Shown here: one piece after another, positions 1 to 18,442 of the stretch | Numbering within the stretch: the first letter of the stretch is position 1 | Layout: each line of letters starts with the position of its first letter | Source of the DNA: Chiloscyllium plagiosum | Taxonomy: Eukaryota | Assembly: GCF_004010195.1 (NCBI RefSeq) | Contig: NC_057751.1 | Coordinates: 17,109,986-17,129,985, forward strand | Length of the DNA stretch: 20,000 nucleotides | Reading direction: 5' to 3' | Translations under genes and position numbers: made by a program | Notes under the pieces: generated by a model | What the model saw: the letters and a program-made list of their open reading frames with translations, nothing else | Databases searched by the model: none | Told to the model about the DNA's origin: nothing

Positions 1-1960
1 CAGATCACGGAGCTTAGTAGCATCCATAAGTAAATAATAGGTAAACAGCGGCAAAAACAAAAACATAGCTACAGATGAGTGTTAAGACTTTGTGAGTCCA
101 TTCAGTGTTCTAACAACAGTAGGGTATAAACTGTTCCTAAACCGGCTGGTGTGTGTGTGTGTGTGTTCAGCCTTCTGTACCTTCTCCCCCCGATGGTAGA
201 GGCTGGAGAAAAACATTGCCAGGGTGGGATGGAGCTTTGAGAATGCTGGCGGCCTTTCCCTGACCGCGGGCCTGGCAGATGGATGCTATAGCGAGGAGGT
301 TGGCCTTTGTGAGTGTCCGGGCCGGGTTCACCCCTCTCTGTAACCGTCTCCGACCTTGAATGGGTACACAGTTTCCGTACCAGGTCGTGATACGTCCAGA
401 CAGAACGCTCTCGATGGCGCACCGATAAAAGTTGGCGAGGGTATTCGCCATCATGCCAAATTTCCTCAGCTGACTGAGGAAGAAGAGACGTTGTTGGGCC
501 TTTGTAACCAGTGTTTTTTTACATGCAGAGTCCAAGAAAACTTGTCATGACCACTCCAGGAAATTGACATCCTCCACTCGTTCCACCTCTGAGCTGTTAA
601 TGTGCAGCGGGAGCATGATTAACATGCCACCAAAAGTCAATGATGAGTTCCTTGGTTTTGCCGGCATTGAGAGTTAGGTTGCTCTCAGTGCCCCATTTTT
701 CCAGGTCTTCTGTCTGTAGTCTGCTTCTTCGCCATCTGAGATTCGACTGACTGTAATGGTGTCATCAGTGAACTTGTGAATGGCATTAGTCTGGTATTGG
801 GCCATGCAGTCATGGGTATACATGAGCATGTACACCTGGGGGCGCCAGTGTTGAGTATTAGTGAGGATGAAATATTGTCCCCAGTCTTCACAGTTTGTGG
901 CCTGTGCATCAGGAAACTGAGGATCCAGTTGCAGAGAGTGGGGCTTTGCCCGAGATCACTAAGTTTAGTAATCAGACTCGAAATGATATTAATGTTGACG
1001 GCTGAACTGTAGTCAATTAGTAGGATTCTTTCGTAGCTGTTCTTGATGTCAAGATGCTCTCGGGATAAGTGAAGGGCAAGTGATATGGAATCTGACATCA
1101 ATCTGTTGGTCCGATAGGCAAATTGGAGAGGGTCAAGAGTCATGGGGAGGCTGGAGGTGAGCAGACCTTCAAAGCACTTCATGACCACCGAAGTTAGGGT
1201 CACTGGGCGGTAGTCATTGATACATCCTGCATGAGCCTTGCTCAGCACAGGGATGATATTGGCCCTCTTGAAACAGGCAGGGACAGTGGCCTGCCACAGG
1301 GAGAGGTTGAAGATGTCTGAGAAGATCTCTGCCAGTTGATCTGCGCATGATTTGAGTGCACGGCCTGGTACTCCGTCTGGTCCCATTGCTTTCCTTGGAT
1401 TCACATGAAGGAAAACTGATCTGACCGTCGATGCAGTGACTGTTTGGATAGGTTCAGCAGGACTTGTCAGAATATGTGTTAACTCTCCACCAACATTCTG
1501 CTCAAAGCGAGCACAGAAGGCATTGAGACGATCTGGGAGGGATATGTTATCATCTGCTACCTTGCTCTGTCTCTTTTTCGAACCTGTGATGTCACTTAGT
1601 CCTTGCCATAGTCGCCGGGTGTCTGTCTGTGTCTCTAGTTTGCATGTCTATTGGTCCTTGGCTGGTCTTAATGGCTCTGTGATGGCCATACTTGGCTCCT
1701 TTACATTTGAGTGGGTCTCCTGATCTGAAGGCCTCACGCCTGGTTTTTAGCAGGTTCTGTATGTCCTGATTCATCCAGGGCTTCCTGTTGGGGACCACCG
1801 TTATTCAGTCAACGCACTCGCTGATAAAGTCTGTGACAGTGCTGGCATACGCGTCCGAGTACCTGCGGACTGTTATAACATGGTCCAATCAGCCGATTCC
1901 AGACAGCACCGGAGTTGATCCTCTGTCTCCTCCAACCAGCTCTGGACCTGGCGAGGGGGG
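1..1960 (-). mobile_element. Rex1/Babar-clade non-LTR retrotransposon, 5'-truncated, decayed RT ORF; 3' end runs off the left edge
   Basis: Minus-strand ORF pieces: NRKPWMNQDI, KAMGPDGVPGRALKSCADQLAEIFSDIFNLSL, NDYRPVTLTSVVMKCFE, LDPLQFAYRTNR, CNWILSFL, LNTGAP, FTDD (772-761) and KAQQRLFFLSQLRKFG..NFYRCAIESVL. These motifs are typical of Rex1/Babar RT. Several frameshifts and small deletions. Confidence 0.9.
149..166. repeat. (GT)9 microsatellite inside the Rex1 3' region
   Basis: Directly visible gtgtgt run. Confidence 0.9.
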
Positions 1961-1965
1961 GTCTC

Positions 1966-3125
1966 CTGATCAGACCACCAATGCCCACTTCCAGATCATT
2001 TATGTACATCGCAAGCAACAGTGGCCCCAGCACTGATCCTTGTGGAACACCACTGGTAATGTTGCTCCATTTCGAGAAACTCCCTTCAGCTACTGGTCTC
2101 TGTATCATGTTGCTCAAACAGCTCTTTATCCACCGAGCTAGGACACCCTGAACACCATTTGACTTTACTTTCTCCATTAGTTTACCATGGGGAACCTTAT
2201 CAAACGCCTTACTAACGCCCATGTATATGATACCTACATCCTTTCCTTCATCTATCAACTTGGTCACTTCCTCAAAGAACTCTATTAAGTTGGTAAGGCA
2301 TGATCGCCCCAGCCCCCTCCACAAAACCATCAGTGATAAGCCTATTATTTTCCAATTATAAATACATTCAGTATTCTCTCCAACAACTTTCCCACCACTG
2401 ACGTCAGGCTCACTGGTCTGTAGTTACCTGGAATGTCCCTACTACCCTTCTTGTACAGGGACACAACATTAGCAGCTCTTCAGTACTCCGGCACCTCACC
2501 TGTATTTAAGGATGCTACAAAGGTATCTGTCAGGGCTCCAGCTATTTCCTCTCTCGCCTCCCGCAGCACCCTGGGATAGATCCCATCCGATCCTGGGGAT
2601 TTGTCCACCTAATATCCTGTAGCCTACCCAACATGTCTTCCCTCCTTATGTCAACGTGATCCAAAGTAAATCAACTTTTACCTCTCATCTCAACATTCAC
2701 CGTACCCCTCTCCTCAATGAACACTGAGGCAAAGTAATCATTGAGAGTCTCCCCCATTTTCTCAGGTTCGACCCACAACCTTCCTTCCTTATCCTTTAGT
2801 GGACCAAAACGCTCTCTTGCTACACTCTTGCTTCTTGTATGTGAATATAATACCTTGGGCTACTCCTTAATTCTGCTCGCTAGAGTTCTTTCATGACTCC
2901 ATTCAGCTTGACTCCCCATTTAGGATTCTCCTGATATTCCTCCAAGGCCCATTCTATACTTAGCTGCCTGGGCCATGTATGCTTCCCTGTTCCTTTTAGC
3001 CCATCACATGATTTCTCCTGTCATCCCCGGTTCACGAATCTTGCCTTTCCTATCCCTTGTTTTCAAAGGGACATACGTTTACTGCACCAGCGTCAAGCTA
3101 TGTTTGAAACACTCCCACGTATCAA
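1966..3125 (-). mobile_element. CR1-clade LINE (HER1-like) ORF2 fragment, cut just before the FADD motif
   Basis: ORF 1809-2330(-): GRSCLTNLIEFFEEVTK..VSKAFDKVPH..SGVPQGSVLGPLLLAMYINDLEVGIGGLIR. Upstream sequence to about 3125 continues as CR1 ORF2-like (NYRPVSLTSVVGKLLE region at about 2375-2425). The right boundary is approximate. Confidence 0.9.
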
Positions 3126-3795: not shown

Positions 3796-4425
3796 GTTGT
3801 GGTTCTGTTCGCCGAGCTGGGAGTGTGTGTTGCAGACGTTTCGTCCCCTGTCTAGGTGACATCCTCAGGGCTTGGGAGCCTCCTGTGAAGCGCTTCTGTG
3901 ACCTTTCCTCCGGCATTTATAGTGGTTTGTACCTGCCGCTTCCGGTTGTCGGTTCCAGCTGTCCGCTGCAGTGGCCGGTATATTGGGTCCAGGTCGATGT
4001 GCTAATTGATTGAATCTGTAGATGAGTGCCATGCCTCTAGGAATTCCCTGGCTGTTCTCTGTTTGGCTTGTCCTATAATAGTAGTGTTGTCCCAGTCGAA
4101 CTCATGTTGCTTGTCATCTGCGTGTGTGGCTACTAAGGATAGCTGGTCGTGTCGTTTCGTTGCGGCATGTCCTCGTTCCGTTGTCTTTCCCTTAGGCATC
4201 TGTGGATGAAATTGTGCGGGTATCCGTTTTTGGCGAATACATTGTATAGGTGTTCTTCTTCCTCTTTTTGCAGTTCTGGTGTGCTGCAGTGTGTTGTGGC
4301 CCTTTTGAACAGTGTCTTGACTCAACTTCTTTTGTGTGTGTTGGGGTGGTTGCTTTCGTAGTTCAGGACTTGGTCTGTGTGTGTGGCTTTCCTTAATACC
4401 TTTGTGGTGAATTCTCCGTTTTCTT
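3796..4425 (-). mobile_element. Penelope-like element (Poseidon-type), 5'-truncated with an internal deletion; 3' pLTR at about 3796-3960
   Basis: NGEFTTKVLRKATHTDQVLNYESNHPNTHKRS (post-RT thumb region) and HDQLSLVATHADDKQHEFDWDNTTIIGQAKQRTAREFLEAWHS (C-terminal part of PLE GIY-YIG). The two are joined by a deletion near 4157. An HHR motif lies in the terminal repeat. Confidence 0.88.
3831..3873 (-). ncRNA. Minimal type I hammerhead ribozyme in the PLE pLTR (core intact)
   Basis: RNA reads AAGCC-CUGAGGA-U-GUCACCU(AGAC)AGGGGAC-GAAA-CG-UC-UGCA. It has the CUGANGA and GAAA core, a stem II with 6 of 7 pairs, a palindromic ACGU stem III and a GUC cleavage triplet. Stem I is short (GC/GC) with a C.U mismatch next to the core. 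Confidence 0.8.
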
Positions 4426-4622
4426 CCCATTCTATGTCTTTAAGTCTCACCCTGTGGCGATCCCGACAGCAAAGCAGTCCTTGAATTGTCGAGTCCGTCT
4501 CCTTGGTACCCATCTCATGAGACCTACCCTGGCTCTGGGCTGTGCCTTTCAAATTGATGCATGCCGCCCGCACTCACCAACTTTCTGACTGTGCCCGCCG
4601 CCTCTGACAGACGGGAGCTCCG

Positions 4623-4890
4623 AACGTCGACGCTGCCAACCTTGGACGCCACCCTCACTCGGGACCTACGTCACTCTCTCTGCCTTCATGTCTCTTCCTG
4701 CCAACCGGCACCCCAAAAAAAGCACCGTCCCCTTCCCTGTTCATCAAACATGAACCTAACGTCGACGCTGCCAACCTTGGACGCCACCCTCACTCGGGAC
4801 CTACGTCACTCTCTCTGCCTTCATGTCTCTTCCTGCCAACCGGCACCCCAACAAAGCACCGCCCCTTCCCTGTTCATCAAACATGAACCT
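4623..4890. repeat. Tandem duplication, 2 x about 134 bp (4623-4757, 4758-4890)
   Basis: aacgtcgacgctgccaacc...catgaacct occurs twice. The copies differ only around ccccaaaaaaagcaccgt versus ccccaacaaagcaccg. Confidence 0.95.
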
Positions 4891-5527: not shown

Positions 5528-5899
5528 GGAAAGCAAATTATCCTATTAAGCTGTTTTGAGACTCCAAATTTAAACAATGGTTTCTCTGTTGTGCAAACTA
5601 TGGTAGGGCAAATGATATTTAATTAGCAGTGTACATACATTTCATGCAGATTTTTATTTAATGTCCATGTTAAAAACACGACATGGCCACTCCAGGAAAC
5701 CTACAATAACTTTACCAACATTCTCTTATTGTCCACCCTCCCTAAGTATGAATAGCACTCGACGTGGAAGAAAGGTATCATCGCCTCAGTCCACTTTTAT
5801 CTGTTCAGAATGATGGGGAGATGCCAGTGTTGGACTGGGGTGGACAACGTCAGGAGTCACACCATCCTACGTTTATGGTCTTGCACGTACAGTTGAAAT

Positions 5900-5934
5900 T
5901 GCAAGCTTTCTGAGCGCTGCTTCTTCCTCAGGTG
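5900..5934 (-). ncRNA. Degenerate minimal hammerhead ribozyme (second family, AGCU stem III)
   Basis: CAC-CUGAGGA-A-GAAGC(AGC)GCUCA-GAAA-GC-UU. The core is intact, while the base of stem II and stem I are mutated. Confidence 0.65.
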
Positions 5935-5959
5935 AAGTCTGCTTCACTTGACCAAGTAG

Positions 5960-6210
5960 TTTAGGACTTTAGATTAGATTTAGATTACTTTACAGTGTGG
6001 AAACAGGCCCTTCGGCCCAACAAGTCCACANNNNNNNNNNNNNNNNNNNNNNNNNNNNNNNNNNNNNNNNNNNNNNNNNNNNNNNNNNNNNNNNNNNNNN
6101 NNNNNNNNNACGTGCAAACTCCACACAGTCAGTCGCCTGAGGCGGGAATTGGACCCGGGTCTCTGGCGCTGCGAGGCAGCAGTGCTAACCACTGTGCCAC
6201 CGTGTCGCCC
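5960..6210 (-). mobile_element. HE1 SINE with both ends present (contains an N gap); 9-bp TSD
   Basis: tRNA-like head on the minus strand (gggcgacacggtggcacagtggttagc...gggtccaattccc) and an (atcta)n tail. Flanked by accaagtag (5951-5959) and actaagtag (6211-6219). Confidence 0.9.
6031..6109. other. Assembly gap (79 N)
   Basis: Run of N. Confidence 1.
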
Positions 6211-6911
6211 ACTAAGTAGCAGTGGTCCAAAAGTTTGTGAGTCGAAGCAAAGTTTTTGGAGTATAAGCTGGTGTCATGCAAAATCTGACCCTATTTGCTG
6301 AACACTAAACCCAGCTCTCTGAGCCGTAGTTCCAGTTCAACAGAAAACACACCCATCTGCGAATCAATGTTGGAATGTTTTCCAAGAATGTTAAACGTTT
6401 GAAAGAGAATATTTTTTTGGGTAATCCACATGTGGCTGGGGTTATGCTTCTTAATCATTCTTAATTGATCCACATACTCATCCATTTGCTTGCAAAAGTG
6501 TGCCGATATTGTCCCCATAAGAAGCGCACTGACTTATTTCTCTTGCAGAGTAGTCTTGTCACATATATCCTTAGACTGGCAGTTGGCAAATAGCTGTGAC
6601 TTCTCACTGGGTGTTCTTTCAAGTAAGATAAATGAATCGTGAGTGAGCACAAACACGGCTCACACAGACCCAACAGATCTGCTTTCACATGTTCCATGAT
6701 TTTGCTCGCTGATGGAGCTGAGATTTTGAGCTCTCTTGCTAGAAAAACATCTTAGACAGAGAGACTTCCTCTCATGAATCAAATGGGTGTGGAATGTTTC
6801 TTCCAATGCTTCTTTCTCCTGGACTAGAGAGAAACGACACATGGGAAGGAAAATTGTGTTTCTAATGCGCCTCTGCAAAATGTGTGGTTACGGAATGATG
6901 CCAATATTGAA

Positions 6912-7207
6912 AGAACATAGAACAGAGCAGTGGAGTACAGGCCTTCAGCCCTCGATATTGTGCCGGCCTTTTATCCTACTCTAAGTTTAGACTAACCTAT
7001 ATACCCTTTAAAGTACAATCTCCGCTGTGCCAATCCAACAGTCGCTTAAATATCCCTGGTGTATCTGACTTTATGACCACTGCGGGCAATGCATTCCACG
7101 CACTCACAACAATTTGTTTAAAAATAAACCTACCCCTGACATCTTCCCTAAACCTTCCTCCAATTACCTTAAAACTCATGATATACATTTCTGCCATGGG
7201 AAAAAAA
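6912..7207 (-). mobile_element. CR1 LINE 3' end (copy 1, ends at gap)
   Basis: FKVIGGRFREDVRGRFIFKQIVVSAWNALPAVV..IFKRLLDWH (CR1 ORF2 C-terminus), followed by a 3' UTR ending in ctgttctatgttct. Confidence 0.85.
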
Positions 7208-7232
7208 NNNNNNNNNNNNNNNNNNNNNNNNN
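7208..7232. other. Assembly gap (25 N)
   Basis: Run of N. Confidence 1.
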
Positions 7233-7708
7233 CTCTGGCGCTGCGAGGCAGCAGTGCTAACCACTGTGCCACCGTGCCGCCCACTAAGTAGCAGTGGTCC
7301 AAAAGTTTGTGAGTCGAAGCGAAGTTTTTGGAGAAACGACACATGGGAAGGAAAATTGTGTTTCTAATGCGCCTCTGCAAAATGCGTGGTTACGGAATGA
7401 TGCCAGTATTGATAGAACATAGAACAGAGCAGTGGAGTACAGGCCTTCAGCCCTCGATATTGTGCCGGCCTTTTATCCTACTCTAAGTTTAGACTAACCT
7501 ATATACCCTTAAAGTACAATCTCCGCTGTGCCAATCCAACAGTCGCTTAAATATCCCTGGTGTATCTGACTTTATGACCACTGCTGGCAATGCATTCCAC
7601 GCACTCACAACAATTTGTTTAAAAATAAACCTACCCCTGACATCTTCCCTAAACCTTCCTCCAATTACCTTAAAACTCATGATATACATTTCTGCCATGG
7701 GAAAAAAA
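7233..7708. repeat. Near-identical re-occurrence of 6161-6261 joined to 6832-7207 (probable alternate haplotype); includes the HE1 head at 7233-7282
   Basis: Direct comparison shows about 7 differences over about 475 bp. The copy starts right at the gap. Confidence 0.9.
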
Positions 7709-9680: not shown

Positions 9681-10456
9681 GAAGACTGCCAGATATTAAT
9701 TTCTTCAAAGCCTTGTTTGAGTTTGATGAAAATGCCATGACCGACCATTCACTGATCCAGTTAATGACAGATGAAATGAAAGATTAACACAATGTTCTCC
9801 TGTGGTAGGAAACTGCTCAATAGATCTATGTGGCACTTCCAGCCCGCAGCTCTTTATTGAAATGGGCAGCTGTTAGAATGTATAGTCTTGGTAGAGTCGC
9901 TCTTGTAATGTTAACCAAAACATGGAGATTCAACTCCCCCAAATGTTGTGGGTCCAAAATTTAAGAATTATTACCAAGGTTCCACATGTCTTCAGAAGCA
10001 CAGTCCATGTCATTGGGACACTGAGGCTATGCTTCCCTTTATTATGTGAACCAGCAGATATAATTATAGAACTATTAATCTCAGATCTCTCTTTTGTTAA
10101 TGCTTAGAAGTTCATTTACTGCAACTCCATGGGATGGACAAATGTAGGGGAAATGTCCAAGTGACATCAACGTTTGAAGTTATTCTCATTTGGGTAACTG
10201 AGAATTTGATTTGCACTGAGACATAATGTCCCCAGTCATTTCTTTTCAATTCAGTTATCTCTGCGGTGACTGTCATCCTGAACAGTGGGCATTGTTCCCT
10301 CTCAAAACGGATCCGGTAGTATTCGATGAAATCGGTTGTTTCCTATCAAGTTCGTCACTTTCCATTGAAACATTCCAAACTTTTAGCGAGGTGAGAAACA
10401 TTTTCGAGCTCAGGTTGAGGTTCTGGATGTGAGTTTGCTCGCGGAGCTGGAAGGTT

Positions 10457-10496
10457 TCAAATGTTTCATCGCCATACGAGGTGAGATCTTCAGTGA
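10457..10496 (-). ncRNA. Degenerate hammerhead ribozyme in the pLTR
   Basis: UCA-CUGAAGA-U-CUCACCU(CGUA)UGGCGAU-GAAA-CAUU-UGA. The core and stem I (UCA/UGA) are retained. Stems II and III are decayed, partly by CpG-type changes. Confidence 0.65.
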
Positions 10497-10684
10497 GCCA
10501 CCGGTGAACTCCTGATGTTGTCTCCCGCTTGTTATTGAACAGCTTAGAGTTCTTTGAGTGCTTGGTGATGTCATTTCCGGTTCTTTTTCTCAAAGAATGG
10601 TCGATAGGGGTCAAACTCCATGAGTTTGTGGACAGAGCTCCGGTTGGATTGCCATGCTTTCTAGGGTTTGTTGGGCACGTCAGA

Positions 10685-11517
10685 GGATGGATCTATTATT
10701 CCAGCCAATGTGGTGGTCTTCCTCGTCTGCTTTTAGGAATATCAGTGACAGTGGGTCATGCCTTTTTCTGGCTAGTTGACGTCCATGTGTCCTGGTGGCT
10801 AGTTCTCGCCTGGTTGTTCAATGCAGTATCTGTACACTATCCTTTTAAATGAAGTTTGTTTTGTTCTTGTCTGTATAGGGTCATTTATGTTCATTAACTA
10901 CTGCCGTGAGTGGTGGCTTGTTGTAATGATGTCCTAAAGCAGCTTTGTTTGTGGCTGCGGAGATGTTTGCTTCTGTAGTTGAATATTTATCCCTAATGTG
11001 TTTTTCTTTGCTGTAGACTCTGGTCTGATATACCCTCTGACCGCTGTGTTCTGATACCTAGGAATGGCAGTTTGTCTTGTTTTCTTCCTATGTTGCGAAT
11101 GGATGGATCTATTATTCCAGCCAATGTGATGGTCTTCCTCGTCTGCTTTTACGAATATCAGTGACAGTGGGTCATGCCTTTTTCTGGCTAGTTGACGTCC
11201 ATGTGTCCTGGTGGCTAGTTCTCGCCTGGTTGTTCAATGCAGTGTCTGTACACTATCCTTTTAAATGAAGTTCGTTTTGTTTCTTGTCTGTATAGGGTCT
11301 TTTATGTTCATTAACTACTGCCGTGAGTGGTGGCTTGTTGTAATGATGTCCTAATGCAGCTTTGTTTGTGGCTGCGGAGATGTTTGCTTCTGTAGTTGAA
11401 TATTTATCCCTAATGTGTTTTTCTTTGCTGTAGACTCTGGTCTGATATACCCTCTGACCGCTGTGTTCTGATACCTAGGAATGGCAGTTTGTCTTGTTTT
11501 CTTCCTATGTTGTGAAT
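10685..11517. repeat. Tandem duplication, 2 x about 416 bp (10685-11100, 11101-11517), inside the PLE
   Basis: ggatggatctattattccagcc...tatgttg(c/t)gaat occurs twice with about 8 differences. Confidence 0.95.
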
Positions 11518-11883
11518 GTTATGCCTGGAAGCATATTATTGATCGTCTTGAAGGTTTCCTCTAATTTGTTTCGTTTAGTGATGATAAAGGTGACATTCAC
11601 GTACAGGAATAAAAGTTTGTGTTGGATGGTGCTGAGAGCTGTTTATTCGACTCTTAGCCTGACTGCTTCTGGGTGTTCCATTGATTTGCGTGAGGCTATT
11701 GTTATTGAATGTTAAGTGGCTGGTGAGGGATAAATCTACTCGCTTGACCATTTTGTCTTTGCTGATGAGGTTGGTGATGTCTAGTGTTTGTGTTTTTGGT
11801 TCTTCTAATCGTGTGGTCACTGTTTCTGTAGCCAGGTAGATGTGGATGGATGTGAACAGCAATGTAATGACAAAGGAGATCAT

Positions 11884-12150
11884 TAGAACATAGAACAGTA
11901 CAGCACAGAACAGGCCCTTCAGCCCACGATGTTGTGCCGACCACTGATCCTCATGTCTGCACCCTCACATTTCTGTGACCATATGCGTGTCCAGGAGTCT
12001 CTCAAATGTCCCCAATGACCCTGCCTCCACAACTGCTGCTGTCTCTGGCTGTCGACTCTATCTATGCCTCTCATTACCTTGTATACCTCAATTAGGTCCC
12101 TCTTCTCCTTTTCTCCAATGAAAAAAGTCCGAGCTCAGTCAACCTCTCCT
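11884..12150 (-). mobile_element. CR1 LINE 3' end inserted into the PLE RT region
   Basis: tagaacatagaacagtacagcacagaacaggcccttcagccc is the reverse complement of a CR1 tail. It is flanked by tcattag at 11880-11886 and 12150-12156. Confidence 0.85.
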
Positions 12151-12715
12151 CATTAGTTCATAGTCTTCCATCTTGGTGTCTGTGATGGTGTTCAGGAATT
12201 CTTGGATGGAGTCCTCTACTAAGTAGTTAAATCTTTTGTGAAGTTCGTTGCTTAGTCTGCCATTTTGTGCTCCCCGTAGTAAGATTTTAGGTCGGAGGGG
12301 GCCTCCTGATTTCTGAAGTTTGGCTAGTCCACAGAAGTGTGATGAGTTGGATCCACCTGGTTCAGTTTTCCTTTTTTGGAGGACTCTCTTGGTCAATTTC
12401 TTAAGTTTTCAGAACAAGGCGGTGTTTCTGTTCTCTCGTTGTGTGCTTGGATGTATCGCCACCTGTTGGCAAGAACCAGTATCTGCAAGCAGTGCATTCG
12501 CCTTTTGCATCGTCGTCTGATTTGTTCAAAACGACTATCCTTTGTCCGCAGATAAGATTGCGATGATTTTGTATTCTTCAGCCCTTCTAGTGCTTTCGCT
12601 TCTTACGCATTGATTGCGTTTGACTCCTTTTTCCTGCTTCATGTTGCTGCAAAGGTTTGTCTGACAGTTGGCTGCGTTTCCTTTGTGAGGACGCTGCCTT
12701 GCACTGTTGCTTCAA

Positions 12716-12939: not shown

Positions 12940-13511
12940 CCTTCTCGTTCGCGTCTGAGAAGTTGCACTTTTGAAGAGGTGCTTTCAGTGTCGACAAGGT
13001 GTAGATCTGATGAGTTTTCTTTGAAAACGAGGCTTTTATGTTGGCCTGTGTTGTTCTTTTGTGTGAGTTTGTCTCGTTTTCTTTTTCTGCAGGTCTCGCT
13101 GTTTTCTCCTCTCTCATTTTTCTGTGTTTGGCGCGGTCCAATACCTTTGTTTTGTTGGACTGTGTCTGTCCATTCATGGTCTGAAAACCTTAGTGAGTAC
13201 TCCGGCGGAAAATGTCACCATTTTATTTGTGGAATCATTTGTGGGAAATGTTAATCATCTCTCGGGGTATTCTGCAGCCGTTTTGTTCTGCTGGTTAGTG
13301 TGGTGTTAAACGGAGGTGTGTACTTAAGACATTGTGGTAGTTCCGGTTTCCTTTGGCATTGGTGCAGGGATTACAGATTTCCCTTCTTCAGACCAGTTTT
13401 TGTGGATTGCGCTCATAGGTTGTGAGCGAGTTTTAAAAATGTTAATATTTTTAAAAATATCTGGTTAAGACTGTAGATGTGAGTTTGCTCACCGAGCTGG
13501 AAGGATGTGCT

Positions 13512-13537
13512 TCAGACATTGGTAATGTCATCAGTGA
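13512..13537 (-). ncRNA. Hammerhead ribozyme remnant (3' arm of stem II and the GA of GAAA deleted)
   Basis: UCA-CUGAUGA-CAUUACC-[deletion]-AAUGUC-UGA, at the homologous pLTR position. Confidence 0.5.
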
Positions 13538-13958
13538 GACTTCAGGAAAGAGCTGGTGTTATGTCCTGCTTTCTGTTTATGCGTTTAGGTTTCTTTGCAT
13601 ACTTGGTGATATCATTTCCGGTTCCTTTTCTCAAAGCATGGCAAATGGCGTCCAAATCGATGTGTTTGTTGATAGACTTCCAGTTGGAATGTCATGTTTC
13701 TAGGGACTTCATGCTTCTCACAACTTCAAGGCCAGGAACAAGACGGATTTCTTAGCAGCATGAGAAGCAAGACGGAAAGAAAACGAACTCGCAGAGGAAA
13801 CCTGGCAAACCATCAGACAGACCATCATGAAGCAGGACAAAGGAAGGAAACACACTCAATACACAAGAAAGAAAAGCACTAGAGGGACTCAAAAAAGACA
13901 AAAATACCATAATTCTATCCGCAGACGAATAACACGTGGCAGTCCTTGTATAAAAATC

Positions 13959-15085
13959 ATTGGAATACAATGGTAGTAAAAGTGAAGTCATACATTTTGG
14001 GAGCAGTAACCGCAAAATAGATTATGACTTGAATGATTAAAAAAAGTTGCAGCATGTTGATTGGCAGAGGAACCTGGTTATCCTTTATCCTGAATCACAG
14101 AAGGTTAGTCTGTAGGGTAAACAAGTAATTAGGAAGGCAAATGGAATTTTGTCCTTCATTGTGAAAGGGTTTTCGTCTAATAGCAGAGGGGTAATGTTAC
14201 AACTGAACACAGTGCTGGTGAGGCCACTGTGTGCAGATTTGGTCTCCTTACTTAAGAAAGCATACACTGGCACTGAAGGGGGGGGTGGGGTTGCAGAGGA
14301 GGTTCACTGGGTTGACTACAGAGTTGAGGGGGTTGGTTTATGAGGAGAGGCTCAGTAGATTGGGATTTTATTCATTGGAATTCAGAAGAATGAGGTGATC
14401 TCATAGAAACATGCAAAATTATTAAGGGAATCGATAAAATAGAAATAGAATACATGTCTCCACAGGTAGATTAGATTAGATTACTTACAGTGTGGAAACA
14501 GGCCCTTCGGCCCAACAAGTCCACACCGACCCACTGAAGCACAACCCACCCATACCCCTACATTTACCCCTTACCTAACACTACGGGCAATTTAGCACGG
14601 CCAATTCACCTGACCTGCACATCTTGTGACTGTGGGAGGAAACCCACGCAGTCACAGGGAGAATGTGCAAACTCCACACAGTTAGTTGCCTGAGTCGGGA
14701 ATTGAACCCGGGTCTATGGTGCTGTGAGGCAGCAGTGCTAACCACTGTGCCTCCGTGCCGCCCACCAGGTGAAAGTAGGACAAGATGGTCTCAATATTAG
14801 AAGAGGCAGGTAAAGAAGTGAGCTGAGAAGGAACTTTTTCACCCAGATGGTTGTTACTCTATGGAATTCCTTGCCCAGGGAAGTAGTTGACGCTACTTTA
14901 ATAATCACTTTTAAAGCTAAAGTAAATACTTTTTTTTTGAAAAAAGAAAGGAATTAAGAGGTATTGTGAAGATGCGGGTAAGTGGAGCTGAGTCCATGAA
15001 CTGATTAGCCATAATCGTATTGAGTGGCGGAGCAGGGTTGAAGGAAGATGGCCGACCCCTGCTCCTCATTCTTATGTTCTTGTGG
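13959..15085 (+). mobile_element. CR1 LINE 3' portion inserted in the PLE
   Basis: SKSEVIHFGSSN, IRKANGILSFIVKGF..VMLQLNTVLVRPL, and FFTQMVVTLWNSLPREVV. The 3' UTR ends ctgctcctcattcttatgttcttg. PLE sequence resumes after 15085 (NALLADTDT). Confidence 0.87.
14468..14763 (-). mobile_element. HE1 SINE, full length, nested in CR1
   Basis: Minus strand has an A-box-like GGCACAGTGG, a B-box GGTTCAATTCC, the V-domain (small deletion) and a (taatc)n tail. The flanks share caggt (14463-14467 and 14766-14770). Confidence 0.92.
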
Positions 15086-16621
15086 TTACTATAAAAAAAG
15101 AACGCACTGCTTGCAGATACCGACACTCACCAACAGGTGTCGTTAGACCCAACCCCACAATCAGAGAATTGAATCACAGCCTTAATCTCAAAATTTAAGA
15201 ATTCAGACAGAAGAAGACAGACTTCCAACAAATGGAACCAGATGGAACCAACGCATCACACTTCTATGGACTACCACAATTCACAGGTTAGGAGCCCCCC
15301 TCTGACCCAGACTCTCAGTGCGGGGAATACCAATTTACAGACTAGCGAAGGAACTGCACAACAGACTAAAGCACCCAGTAGAGACGGAAGCCACTCCATA
15401 CACTCCTCCCAAGAATTCATGAACACCATCAAAGATACCAAGATAAAAGAGGATGAAATAATAATATCCTTTGAAGTAACAGCCCTGTCCAGCTGCATCA
15501 GCAACAACCTTGCTAAAGAAAAAATGACTACACGATTGGAAGAGCCAAAGATACAAACACCACACATCGCCAACTTCATCATCAAAGGCAAACAAGGAGG
15601 CCTATTCCTCATCAGACACTTCACTTTCAATTACAATCAATGTAACATCCATGGGAGCACTGATATCATAGCAGGAGCTGTAATGCAGAGGCTCAAAAAC
15701 ACAGCTCTACAAACTATCCAACCCAAAAATTGGGTCTGCCACGTAGATGACACCTTTCCCTCACGAAACGAAGCAAATTAGAGGAAACCTTCAAGAAGAT
15801 CACGAAAGAGGAAGAAAACACCAAGAAACTCCCTTGCCTAGATGTCACAGTACAGCAATCAGCCATTGGGGAATTTCAAACCAGCGTCTATCGGAAAACA
15901 ACACATACGGAGCAAATACTGAACTACAGAAGCAATCATCCAAAGCTGCATGAGGACGTAAGTTCAACGAGCCACTGCAGCACTGAAGAATTGCAAAGAA
16001 CAGAAGAAAACCACTGTCAAAACGATTCACCGGTAAACAATAATCACAGTCCACTAATTTCTAAGCAGAAAGCAGAAGCAAGCAGACAAAACGAGAGCAG
16101 AAGTCCGAGACACTTTACCCTGCACCAAAGACATCTCTGAAACGATGGACAGACATTGGCATCATGGTCGCACACAAACCCACCAACACACTTGAACATC
16201 AGCTGTTGAATTTAAAAGATCCTGGACAGACAACAAACAAAATGAACGTCAATTATGAAATATCTTGCAAGGATTGGAAGAAACGCTACATTGGACCACC
16301 AGGCAGAAAACTAGTCACCAGGATACATAAACATCAATTAGCCTCACACACACAAAAAAAACCATGACCCACTATCACTAATTTCCATACATACAGGTGA
16401 GAAAAGTCACCATTTTTACTGTGACAGCACATCCGTCCTCGGACAAGCCAAGTAGAGAGACGTAACATTCCAAATCTAACTCTATCAAAAAAACCACATC
16501 AATTTGGACGCCATTTGCCATCCTCTGAGAAAAAGGAACTGGAAATGACATCACCAACACTCAAAGAAAGCTAAACACACCAATCAAACGCGGGACAGAA
16601 CACCAGTGCTTCACTGGAGGC

Positions 16622-16661
16622 TCACTGATGATTTTGCTTAGAAGGGTGACAAAACGTCTGA
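16622..16661 (+). ncRNA. Degenerate hammerhead ribozyme in the 3' pLTR
   Basis: UCA-CUGAUGA-U-UUUGCUU(AGAA)GGGUGAC-AAAA-CG-UC-UGA. Stem I and the ACGU palindrome are kept, catalytic G12 is changed to A, and the 5' arm of stem II is decayed. Confidence 0.7.
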
Positions 16662-18061
16662 AACTGAACCTTCCAACACAGCAAGCAATCTCACATTCAT
16701 TCAAAACCTCTGTTTCTGATGTTTATACCATGGTAAAATCTTGTTTTGTGCTTACCTTTTCAGTCACACAATGTTGTGCTCAGCTTCATTATCGCTTACA
16801 CATTTGATTGATTTGTATAAATTTGTTGCCAGAAGCTGAAAGCAATTTATTGCGCCCAGTAAGTATCAGAGCATGCTGAACAGAGGGCTGCGTTACTGGT
16901 GGTGGTGAGGTGTTGGGGCAGTGGTGTGGGGAGAAGAGATGTAGCGGAAAGGCGCATCCAATAATTCAAACTGACCTTTCATTGTAATTTATTTATCTTC
17001 CGAGTATAGGAGGCTGAGCAGTGTCATTGAATTTGAATCAGAATCACTACAATATGGAATGAGGCCCTTCCGCCGAATGCCCCATTACCCTACTCTTTTG
17101 TTTTCCATTTCCCCTGATGAATGCGCCGAACCGACAAATCCCTGAGCACAATGGGCAACTTCAGCTTTGAACAATTGGACTGTGAACCCTGAGAGTGGAA
17201 GGCAACCACTAAGCCACCATGCCATCCCCGTAACTGCAATGCATAAAGTTATCAAGGTGGCAAATGTATTAAGCAGGAAGTCATTGTTTCCTTGTATTGA
17301 GGGATCAATGATGGTTTGCATAGATTAATGTTCAGAGGTACAAATGCTAAAATGAGAGTCATTGGATATTGCTTTCACCCAGAGCGTCGTGAAAGTTTGG
17401 AACACACGGTTTCGCGATAAACCTCCTTACAATCAGGATGATTTACGTTTTTATTTGCTGTCATCCCGCCAATGAGCCGAAATGGAAACGATGACATGAG
17501 GGTATTCAGTACACCGTGAAGCAGCAGAGGGGCTGAATGTTTTCCTCGCATTTTGCGGAAGTCTATGAATTGATGAATGCGACCTGTCATGCCTCTGTAG
17601 TGTACATCCAGGCCTGGCCTGTGCAGTTGTCTGAGTCCACCCTCCCTGCTCTCAATGACTGCGATTAACGTCAGTTTCCATGGATCGTATTTGTGTTACT
17701 GGAGTCTTTCTGTCTTCTCGTCACACGGGACTGTTTTCAGCGTGTTATTCCATAGCGGGAGAGCCTCATCCATAACAGTAACAGGGATCATCAGCTTCAG
17801 AAAAGGGAGTGGAGAGTTCCGAACATAAGAACAGGACATCAGAAAGTTCTATTAGTGGATCAAATCTGGAAACAAGAGATCAGAATGTTGCAACAATGGA
17901 AAGAGATTTATCCTGGTCTCTTTGCTCTTTCTTCAGTGGCTTGGTCAGAAAGTTCGATGTTAAATTTGGTCCATATTTTCCAATTCTTTCATTATCCCAT
18001 CTTGGTTATTGTTGGAGTTCCTGGTATGTACTCCCATCGAGTTACTGGCTGTAGTTATCTT

Positions 18062-18442
18062 GTTTAACTTTGGTATTATAAAGTCATTAATTCTGTCACG
18101 ATCTCCACTGGTGGTGTGCCTGCTGAGCTCCATTGAAGTCCTCAATGACTCCCTCTGGATCTACACTGAAACCATTATCCAATCCACAGAATGCAGTTCA
18201 AAACTTTACTAACAATGGCAAGTCAGTTAAGTTAATTAAAGTTTTATCTCAGTTTAACTTTGGTATTATAAAGTCATTAATTCTGTCACGATCTCCACTG
18301 GTGGTGTGCCTGCTGAGCTCCATTGAAGTCCTCAATGACTCCCTCTGGATCTACACTGAAACCATTATCCAATCCACAGAATGCAGTTCAAAACTTTACT
18401 AACAATGGCAAGTCAGTTAAGTTAATTAAAGTTTTATCTCAG
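18062..18442. repeat. Tandem duplication, 2 x 190 bp, apparently identical
   Basis: gtttaactttggtattataaag...aaagttttatctca at 18062-18251 and 18252-18441. Confidence 0.95.

Follow-up and report, generated by a model that had tools for sequence, protein, structure and literature searches.

An inverted repeat split by a SINE

The window, by which we mean the whole 20,000-nucleotide stretch of Chiloscyllium plagiosum DNA analysed here, holds at positions 5810–6290 an inverted repeat that has no ORF, as its label in the first-pass annotation stated, and that is interrupted by a SINE. When the SINE and one copy of its TSD are taken out, two arms lie head to head with a 4-base loop between them, forming a reconstructed unit of ~220 bp in which no direct pLTR is left (Table 1). 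Aligned without gaps, the arms agree at 27/37 positions and, over a longer span, at 39/65, and so are unlike each other at 26 of those 65. Among 254,774 other pairings of centre and spacer across the window, none did better than 21/37. Free local alignment of longer arms gave a weaker signal, with a score reached by 9 of 2000 shuffles, because the arms have diverged strongly. We infer a common birth of both arms. Together with a direct check of the sequence, the comparison of 27/37 with the window maximum of 21/37 bears out the arm sequences and the inverted pair of hammerheads that the first-pass annotation had reported. The span it gave, 5812–6290, is right in sequence, but loose contig ends place the left start at 5810; likewise its 6-bp spacer shrinks to a loop of four bases, as the outer two bases pair.

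Similarity between the arms stops at 6290, the equivalent of 5848. Beyond this point the right flank matches the left arm at 10/37 positions, and the left arm therefore has a 38-base extension; a test for a tail found these 38 bp at one end only (5810–5847). We found no outer TSD of at least 5 bp at the ends of the element. Towards the junction, both arms end 6–10 bases upstream of the hammerhead core. The flanks (5781–5810 and 6293–6326) show a weak inverted likeness, with a 7-bp perfect inverted match near both ends. This likeness was found post hoc, and 37 of 4903 random pairs scored as high, as did 120 of 2000 shuffles in a wider test; the insertion target may have been a short palindrome, or the likeness may be due to chance.

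Table 1. Features of the inverted element and of the SINE that divides it, in window coordinates.
Feature	Position	Strand	Basis or remark
PLE tail, 38 bp, outer end of the repeat	5810..5847	-	left arm only; loose contig ends before 5810
Left arm: decayed pLTR body and hammerhead	5848..5937	-	arm-to-arm alignment; family contigs
Left minimal type I hammerhead	5900..5934	-	position-by-position check
4-base loop at the head-to-head junction	5938..5941	.	sequence
Perfect 6-bp inverted repeat around the loop	5932-5937 / 5942-5947		sequence
Right arm, piece 1: 5' strand of stem I, mutated core, start of stem II	5942..5959	+	
Left TSD copy of the SINE	5954-5959		closes piece 1 of the right arm
Younger high-copy SINE within the right hammerhead	5960..6213	-	other copies in the window, depth, TSD
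Right TSD copy of the SINE	6214..6219	+	6 bp exact; 7-9 bp with one mismatch
Right arm, piece 2: remainder of the hammerhead (to 6239) and pLTR body	6220..6290	+	stops at the tail boundary
Second assembled copy: SINE head and right arm to 6261	7233..7333	+	99/101 identical; probably the other allele, joined to 6829-equivalent sequence

Four public runs were compared with positions 5600–6500 at 80% likeness: three contig sets (X1, X6 and X8) and X21, a single-cell poly(A) RNA run of which about 2 in 100 was sampled. The SINE, whose head lies near 6211 and whose repeat tail lies near 5960–5990, carries an exact 6-bp TSD (5954–5959 and 6214–6219), has four further copies within the window and reaches depths in the millions in the public-run contigs. 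RNA reads have loose poly(T) ends at 5979–5991, and SINE head ends fall at 6210–6212. The head of the SINE is putatively tRNA-derived; ARAGORN found no tRNA. Because both TSD copies bear the same changed stem II base, the SINE inserted after the right arm had decayed.

An assembly gap of 79 N (6031–6109) lies inside the SINE, between the two halves of the element. The matching stretch measures 81 bases here versus 139 in the intact SINE copy at 14467–14765, and the gap is probably undersized. As the gap sits in a high-copy repeat, as none of the records from the runs compared with 5600–6500 bridges the SINE or the gap, and as the window has further signs of assembly trouble, two unrelated PLE stubs might have been united across the run of N. 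We regard such a mis-join as very improbable: the join of the halves rests on the TSD and on the right hammerhead, which starts to the left of the SINE and resumes in register to its right. Moreover, the left arm and SINE tail are contiguous in three samples, and the SINE head, right arm and flank are contiguous in X1.

Elsewhere around the locus, a 379-bp duplication (6829–7207 and 7331–7708, identical at 374/378 aligned positions) surrounds a gap of 25 N, and the SINE head and right arm recur within it at 7208–7333. The duplication resembles a tandem assembly of two alleles, of which the second would lack 6262–6828 and be joined through 3 bp of microhomology. Tandem duplications that are nearly perfect occur at three further sites, 10685–11518, 18055–18442 and 4620–4890 (417, 190 and 135 bp; 97–99%), and are possibly assembly artefacts.

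Two decayed hammerheads on opposite strands

Position by position, the two hammerheads have decayed in different ways. The left motif, which reads from 5934 to 5900 on the minus strand, keeps every core base and the palindromic AGCU, with an expected cleavage position between 5903 and 5902; it retains 3/5 pairs of stem II, having lost G10.1–C11.1, and 1/3 pairs of stem I. The right motif (5945–5959 plus 6220–6239, plus strand) keeps 3/3 pairs of stem I and the G–C closing pair, has 3/5 pairs of stem II, is changed at C3, G8 and G12, and carries a non-palindromic AGUU. Core position 8 of this motif reads C if taken from the left TSD copy and U if taken from the right, so that G8 is lost in both cases. 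This check agrees with the earlier description of a left arm that keeps the catalytic core and a right arm that keeps stem I and the closing pair. A 19-bp unit also occurs in two copies at 80% within the right arm (6230–6268) and may be chance.

A hammerhead fold was obtained for an intact relative, from the metagenomic locus L002 described below (z −2.28), but not for the left motif (z 0.47). With the SINE removed, the plus strand forms a long hairpin (z −3.1 to −3.9); the minus strand does not (−28.8 kcal/mol, or −12.0 with the left hammerhead forced). Since the stability of the hairpin differs by strand, we do not take it as evidence of function. A hammerhead scan of the window recovered neither arm, because their stems are broken, and Rfam returned no family at threshold in the window, its four weak matches including none at this locus and no hammerhead family.

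From the conserved positions that have changed, both hammerheads are most likely inactive. In vitro, G8C and C3G abolish cleavage, according to the cited passages on the PLE Poseidon (Frangieh et al. 2024, PMC11167929). Those on minimal hammerheads (min-HHRs; PMC4209133) report that a single motif is inactive and that dimers are weakly active; lying on opposite strands, the two motifs here cannot form such a dimer in one transcript. As the opposite strands bar the needed dimer and both motifs are mutated, the pair would have no present function. Both arms retain both sides of the cleavage site, that is, whole and uncut hammerheads, which fits an uncut RNA as substrate (compare the uncleaved template in PMC11167929).

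An abundant family and a Neptune-type relative

Several lines of evidence place the left arm in a large repeat family. The summed depth in X1 is ~8 over the unique left flank and climbs to 617,000 at 5817–5847, where X6 reaches 878,000 and X8 487,000. Summed contig depth is not equal to copy number, yet these values lie approximately four to five orders above the flank, and the repeat is clearly very abundant. Just before 5810, 649 X1 contigs have loose, mixed, AT-rich ends, and 5810 is therefore a terminus shared by the family. The right arm is more decayed and gathers few contigs, at depths of 90–130 in X1. Compared by eye with the continuation of the family beyond 5847 in the RNA reads, 6261–6290 agrees at 18/30 letters, against 13/30 with the left arm.

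Family variants bear on the ancestral hammerhead that the first-pass annotation had implied from the two arms. In three DNA-type runs, stem I is restored by variants at 5900 (33–47% of summed depth) and 5901 (35–48%), and a stem II pair by a variant at 5922 (33–49% of depth there, and 10/13 RNA reads); the change at 5911 that would restore the left closing pair is absent among the 40 of 72 variants listed. The implied ancestor is in part confirmed by these variants, and the pattern as a whole occurs intact in the metagenomic loci L001 and L002.

In the sampled part of X21, RNA reads of both orientations cover the left arm, and the right arm and unique flanks have none. These reads are evidence of family transcripts and not of expression of the 5810–6290 copy. 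Scans with the hammerhead motif and with the tail motif each returned 0 in viral contigs and 0 in prokaryote genomes, plasmids gave no match, and a search of runs listed no RNA holder.

A metagenome scan with the implied hammerhead motif returned two loci, L001 and L002, which are one element (677 bp at 99.6%). L001 contains an RT stretch. In L002 a CxxxxCxxC linker precedes a GIY-YIG frame that is oriented like the hammerhead. The linker is a mark of Neptune and Nematis in the cited passages of Craig et al. (2021, PMC8557442). The frame in L002 is 48% identical to an RT and GIY-YIG protein whose relatives include turtle proteins, and the Neptune-clade mark is present in both L002 and protein P0001; the 5810–6290 element itself has no ORF in which to carry it. 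Neither L002 nor the PLE fragments of the window gave a Pfam match to a GIY-YIG family at E 0.01, and 5/8 proteins had no hit, so that the endonuclease call rests on motifs and on P0001 and P0002. The match to L001 and L002 exists by construction, as it came from a motif search, and their host is another organism; it establishes that a hammerhead of this kind exists in a Neptune-type PLE and does not thereby identify the maker of the copy at 5810–6290. By analogy, the latter is probably of Neptune type. Three protein routes to translated junctions, or to an autonomous partner with an identical pLTR in this genome, led to none, one of them yielding no candidate and another 63 candidates of which none was significant, and 152 proteins compared with the arms gave only short, chance-level matches.

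Two observations on these relatives stand apart. The marine Neptune-type PLE seen in L001 (99–1050) and L002 (1–1470) is rearranged; its minimal hammerhead is intact, and 109 bp of its interior form an inverted segment. In the P0004 cluster, sea-turtle proteins named as isoforms of host genes (a TANGO2 homolog and GRAM-domain protein 2A) are grouped with a PLE RT and endonuclease protein, and these turtle proteins are probably mis-annotated PLE frames.

The earlier assignment of the hammerheads to a second family is fair, in that the other PLE relics of the window are dissimilar to these arms. A different PLE relic lies at 3830–4570 (minus strand), with a minimal hammerhead core at 3868, a longer stem II, an ACGU-type helix III and an RT-thumb/endonuclease-like frame. 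Decayed relics of another PLE family occupy 10410–12500, 13460–13930 and 15100–16700. Two relic ends, at 13460 and 16700, are inverted repeats that point outwards, so that the inverted layout of 5810–6290 recurs at larger size, and a 26-bp AT-rich palindrome (13431–13456) adjoins one relic end. Finally, 685–2423 (minus strand) holds two broken RT frames with Pfam RVT_1 matches, which are LINE-like.

Origin of the inverted copy

The stretch 5810–6290 is most likely a dead-on-arrival insertion of an endonuclease-positive (EN+) PLE, probably of Neptune type, that has been reduced to its terminal repeat. The asymmetry of the tail (38 bp), the sharp shared end, the high abundance and the existence of L001/L002, a Neptune-type relative with the same hammerhead, argue for this reading, and with it for the first of the two origins that the first-pass annotation had offered, an extremely truncated inverted PLE insertion. 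Features of EN+ PLE insertions found here are a minimal type I hammerhead in the pLTR, decayed at this locus and intact in L002; an adjacent, inverted, 5'-truncated copy lying head to head (27/37); and an interspersed distribution in many copies with a common 3' end (649 X1 contigs at 5810). In the cited passages, one end of a PLE insertion has a tail of 30–40 bp, and an inverted 5'-truncated copy often lies next to the insertion (PMC8557442), a 31-bp tail is on record, and palindromes at head-to-head inverted junctions are abundant (Arkhipova et al. 2013, PMC3846280). The absence of an outer TSD is tolerable, given that the copy is old and that the latter source lists TSD-less copies.

The locus itself shows the geometry, the decay and in what order events took place, and the enzymatic steps behind them would have run as follows. 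The GIY-YIG nuclease of the element would cut an AT-rich site, and its RT would initiate at a pair of adjacent pLTR start points, which set the limits of the tail, and would copy no more than ~90–130 bases of an uncleaved RNA, as far as the leading edge of the ribozyme. Insertion itself would produce the mirror arm, through priming at each of the broken ends or through fold-back of the newly made DNA. The copy would then decay, with the SINE inserting later.

A variant of this scheme places the limit in the template. A short RNA of ~130 nt starting just before the hammerhead, pLTR-only, SINE-like and mobilised in trans, could have been copied, with the mirror arm rebuilt at each insertion. The arms stop at the same place, 6–10 bases upstream of the core, which random truncation does not predict, and family reads are present in the poly(A) RNA of X21. 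However, fold-back synthesis alone makes the arms end together, an identical boundary results if the RT stalls at the folded ribozyme or if a full-length RNA begins there, and in the sampled RNA (about 2 in 100 of one single-cell run) there is no site where many molecules begin or end. We hold this reading to be possible if doubtful; it is compatible with the same geometry as a truncated full-length PLE. More specifically, and as a rather unlikely proposal, the pLTR alone may be transcribed, as a short RNA with its start a few bases ahead of the hammerhead, and copied in trans from both tail start points at the two ends of a single DNA break, palindromic stubs being the normal product of a SINE-like PLE derivative headed by a ribozyme; if this were true, twin priming by PLEs would have left an extensive natural record in the stubs.

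A fixed, two-armed, non-autonomous palindromic family of ~220 bp, with one ribozyme per strand, would account for the compact, symmetrical structure and for the long hairpin of the SINE-free plus strand. Such a family would give a strong fold-back or SINE-skipping joint, yet among the 15 of 79 joints listed there is neither a fold-back joint at 5936–5945 nor one that skips the SINE. Depth also drops past the left hammerhead, from 12,105 to 2,576 in X1, from 22,805 to 7,934 in X6 and from 8,082 to 3,706 in X8, and part of the residue is probably SINE tail. The joint test is a weak one, as palindromes interrupt contigs and the right arm has decayed too far to attract contigs of the family, and we judge a fixed family improbable. 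With regard to the fixed junctions proposed earlier as a check, the left end is indeed fixed, as in any PLE, and under this weak test no shared junction appears among those 15 of 79 joints. The alternative label of a retrozyme-like mini-element is not supported at the locus, which has no tandem direct units. As a candidate, the non-LTR retrozyme was rejected, since by definition two or more successive units of a tandem direct array must each hold a complete hammerhead, and the locus has no such array. As a short, non-coding inverted repeat, the element also resembles a MITE derived from a DNA transposon, or a miRNA hairpin. Its ends are asymmetrical, with the 38-base tail on one side, and have neither matching outer TIRs nor an outer TSD, findings that speak against the DNA transposon named earlier as the outcome that would overturn the PLE interpretation. 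As for a miRNA, the genomic hairpin is split by the SINE, Rfam has no match at the locus, and the sampled X21 has no reads on the right arm or flanks, coming from a poly(A) library that is blind to small RNAs. The MITE is largely refuted, and we give both readings almost no credence.

The truncated PLE insertion that we favour has close parallels in print. Complex EN+ PLE insertions (PMC3846280, PMC8557442) share its head-to-head inverted pLTRs, junction palindrome, tail of 30–40 bp at one end and, in some copies, lack of a TSD; they differ in that the present unit of ~220 bp has no ORF or direct pLTR, and the published examples in the passages concerned are from a rotifer and schematic. The min-HHRs (PMC4209133) share the type I fold, an extra base after A9 (between 9 and 10.1), the G10.1–C11.1 pair, a helix III that is palindromic, and dual motifs lying on opposite strands. 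In Schistosoma the motifs are reported 100–700 bp apart, versus 10 bases here, where stem II has 5 bp and both motifs are decayed. Poseidon of Anolis carolinensis, characterised in vitro (PMC11167929), has two RT start sites that correspond to the tail, both DNA strands cut and extended, an uncleaved RNA template and AT-rich targets; it belongs to another clade, and in the passages cited the stop at the ribozyme edge and the inverted junction are unaccounted for. Non-LTR retrozymes, reported in the one chondrichthyan sampled (Li, Clavereau and Pollet, bioRxiv 10.64898/2026.07.22.740005), are likewise non-coding, derived from a PLE pLTR and equipped with a type I hammerhead, in the passages cited, but consist of tandem direct units with hammerheads, in contrast to the inverted pair with broken motifs here.

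The 5810–6290 copy is thus a member of the known truncated inverted PLE insertions, its clade being assigned by analogy. The first-pass annotation had thought it poorly described; head-to-head palindromes, the tail and minimal hammerheads on opposite strands are already in print, in passages that describe the PLE class and not this family in particular. The unusual points are only the very short distance between the motifs and the weak inverted likeness of the flanks. As a single copy, old, broken and split by a SINE, the element matters little. For annotation it is a caution, since PLE stubs may pass for MITEs, miRNA hairpins or retrozymes. As a class, these stubs could be of modest importance. 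The formation of inverted PLE junctions is called undefined in the cited passages of PMC8557442, and a genome rich in short palindromic insertions would be good material with which to separate twin priming from fold-back.
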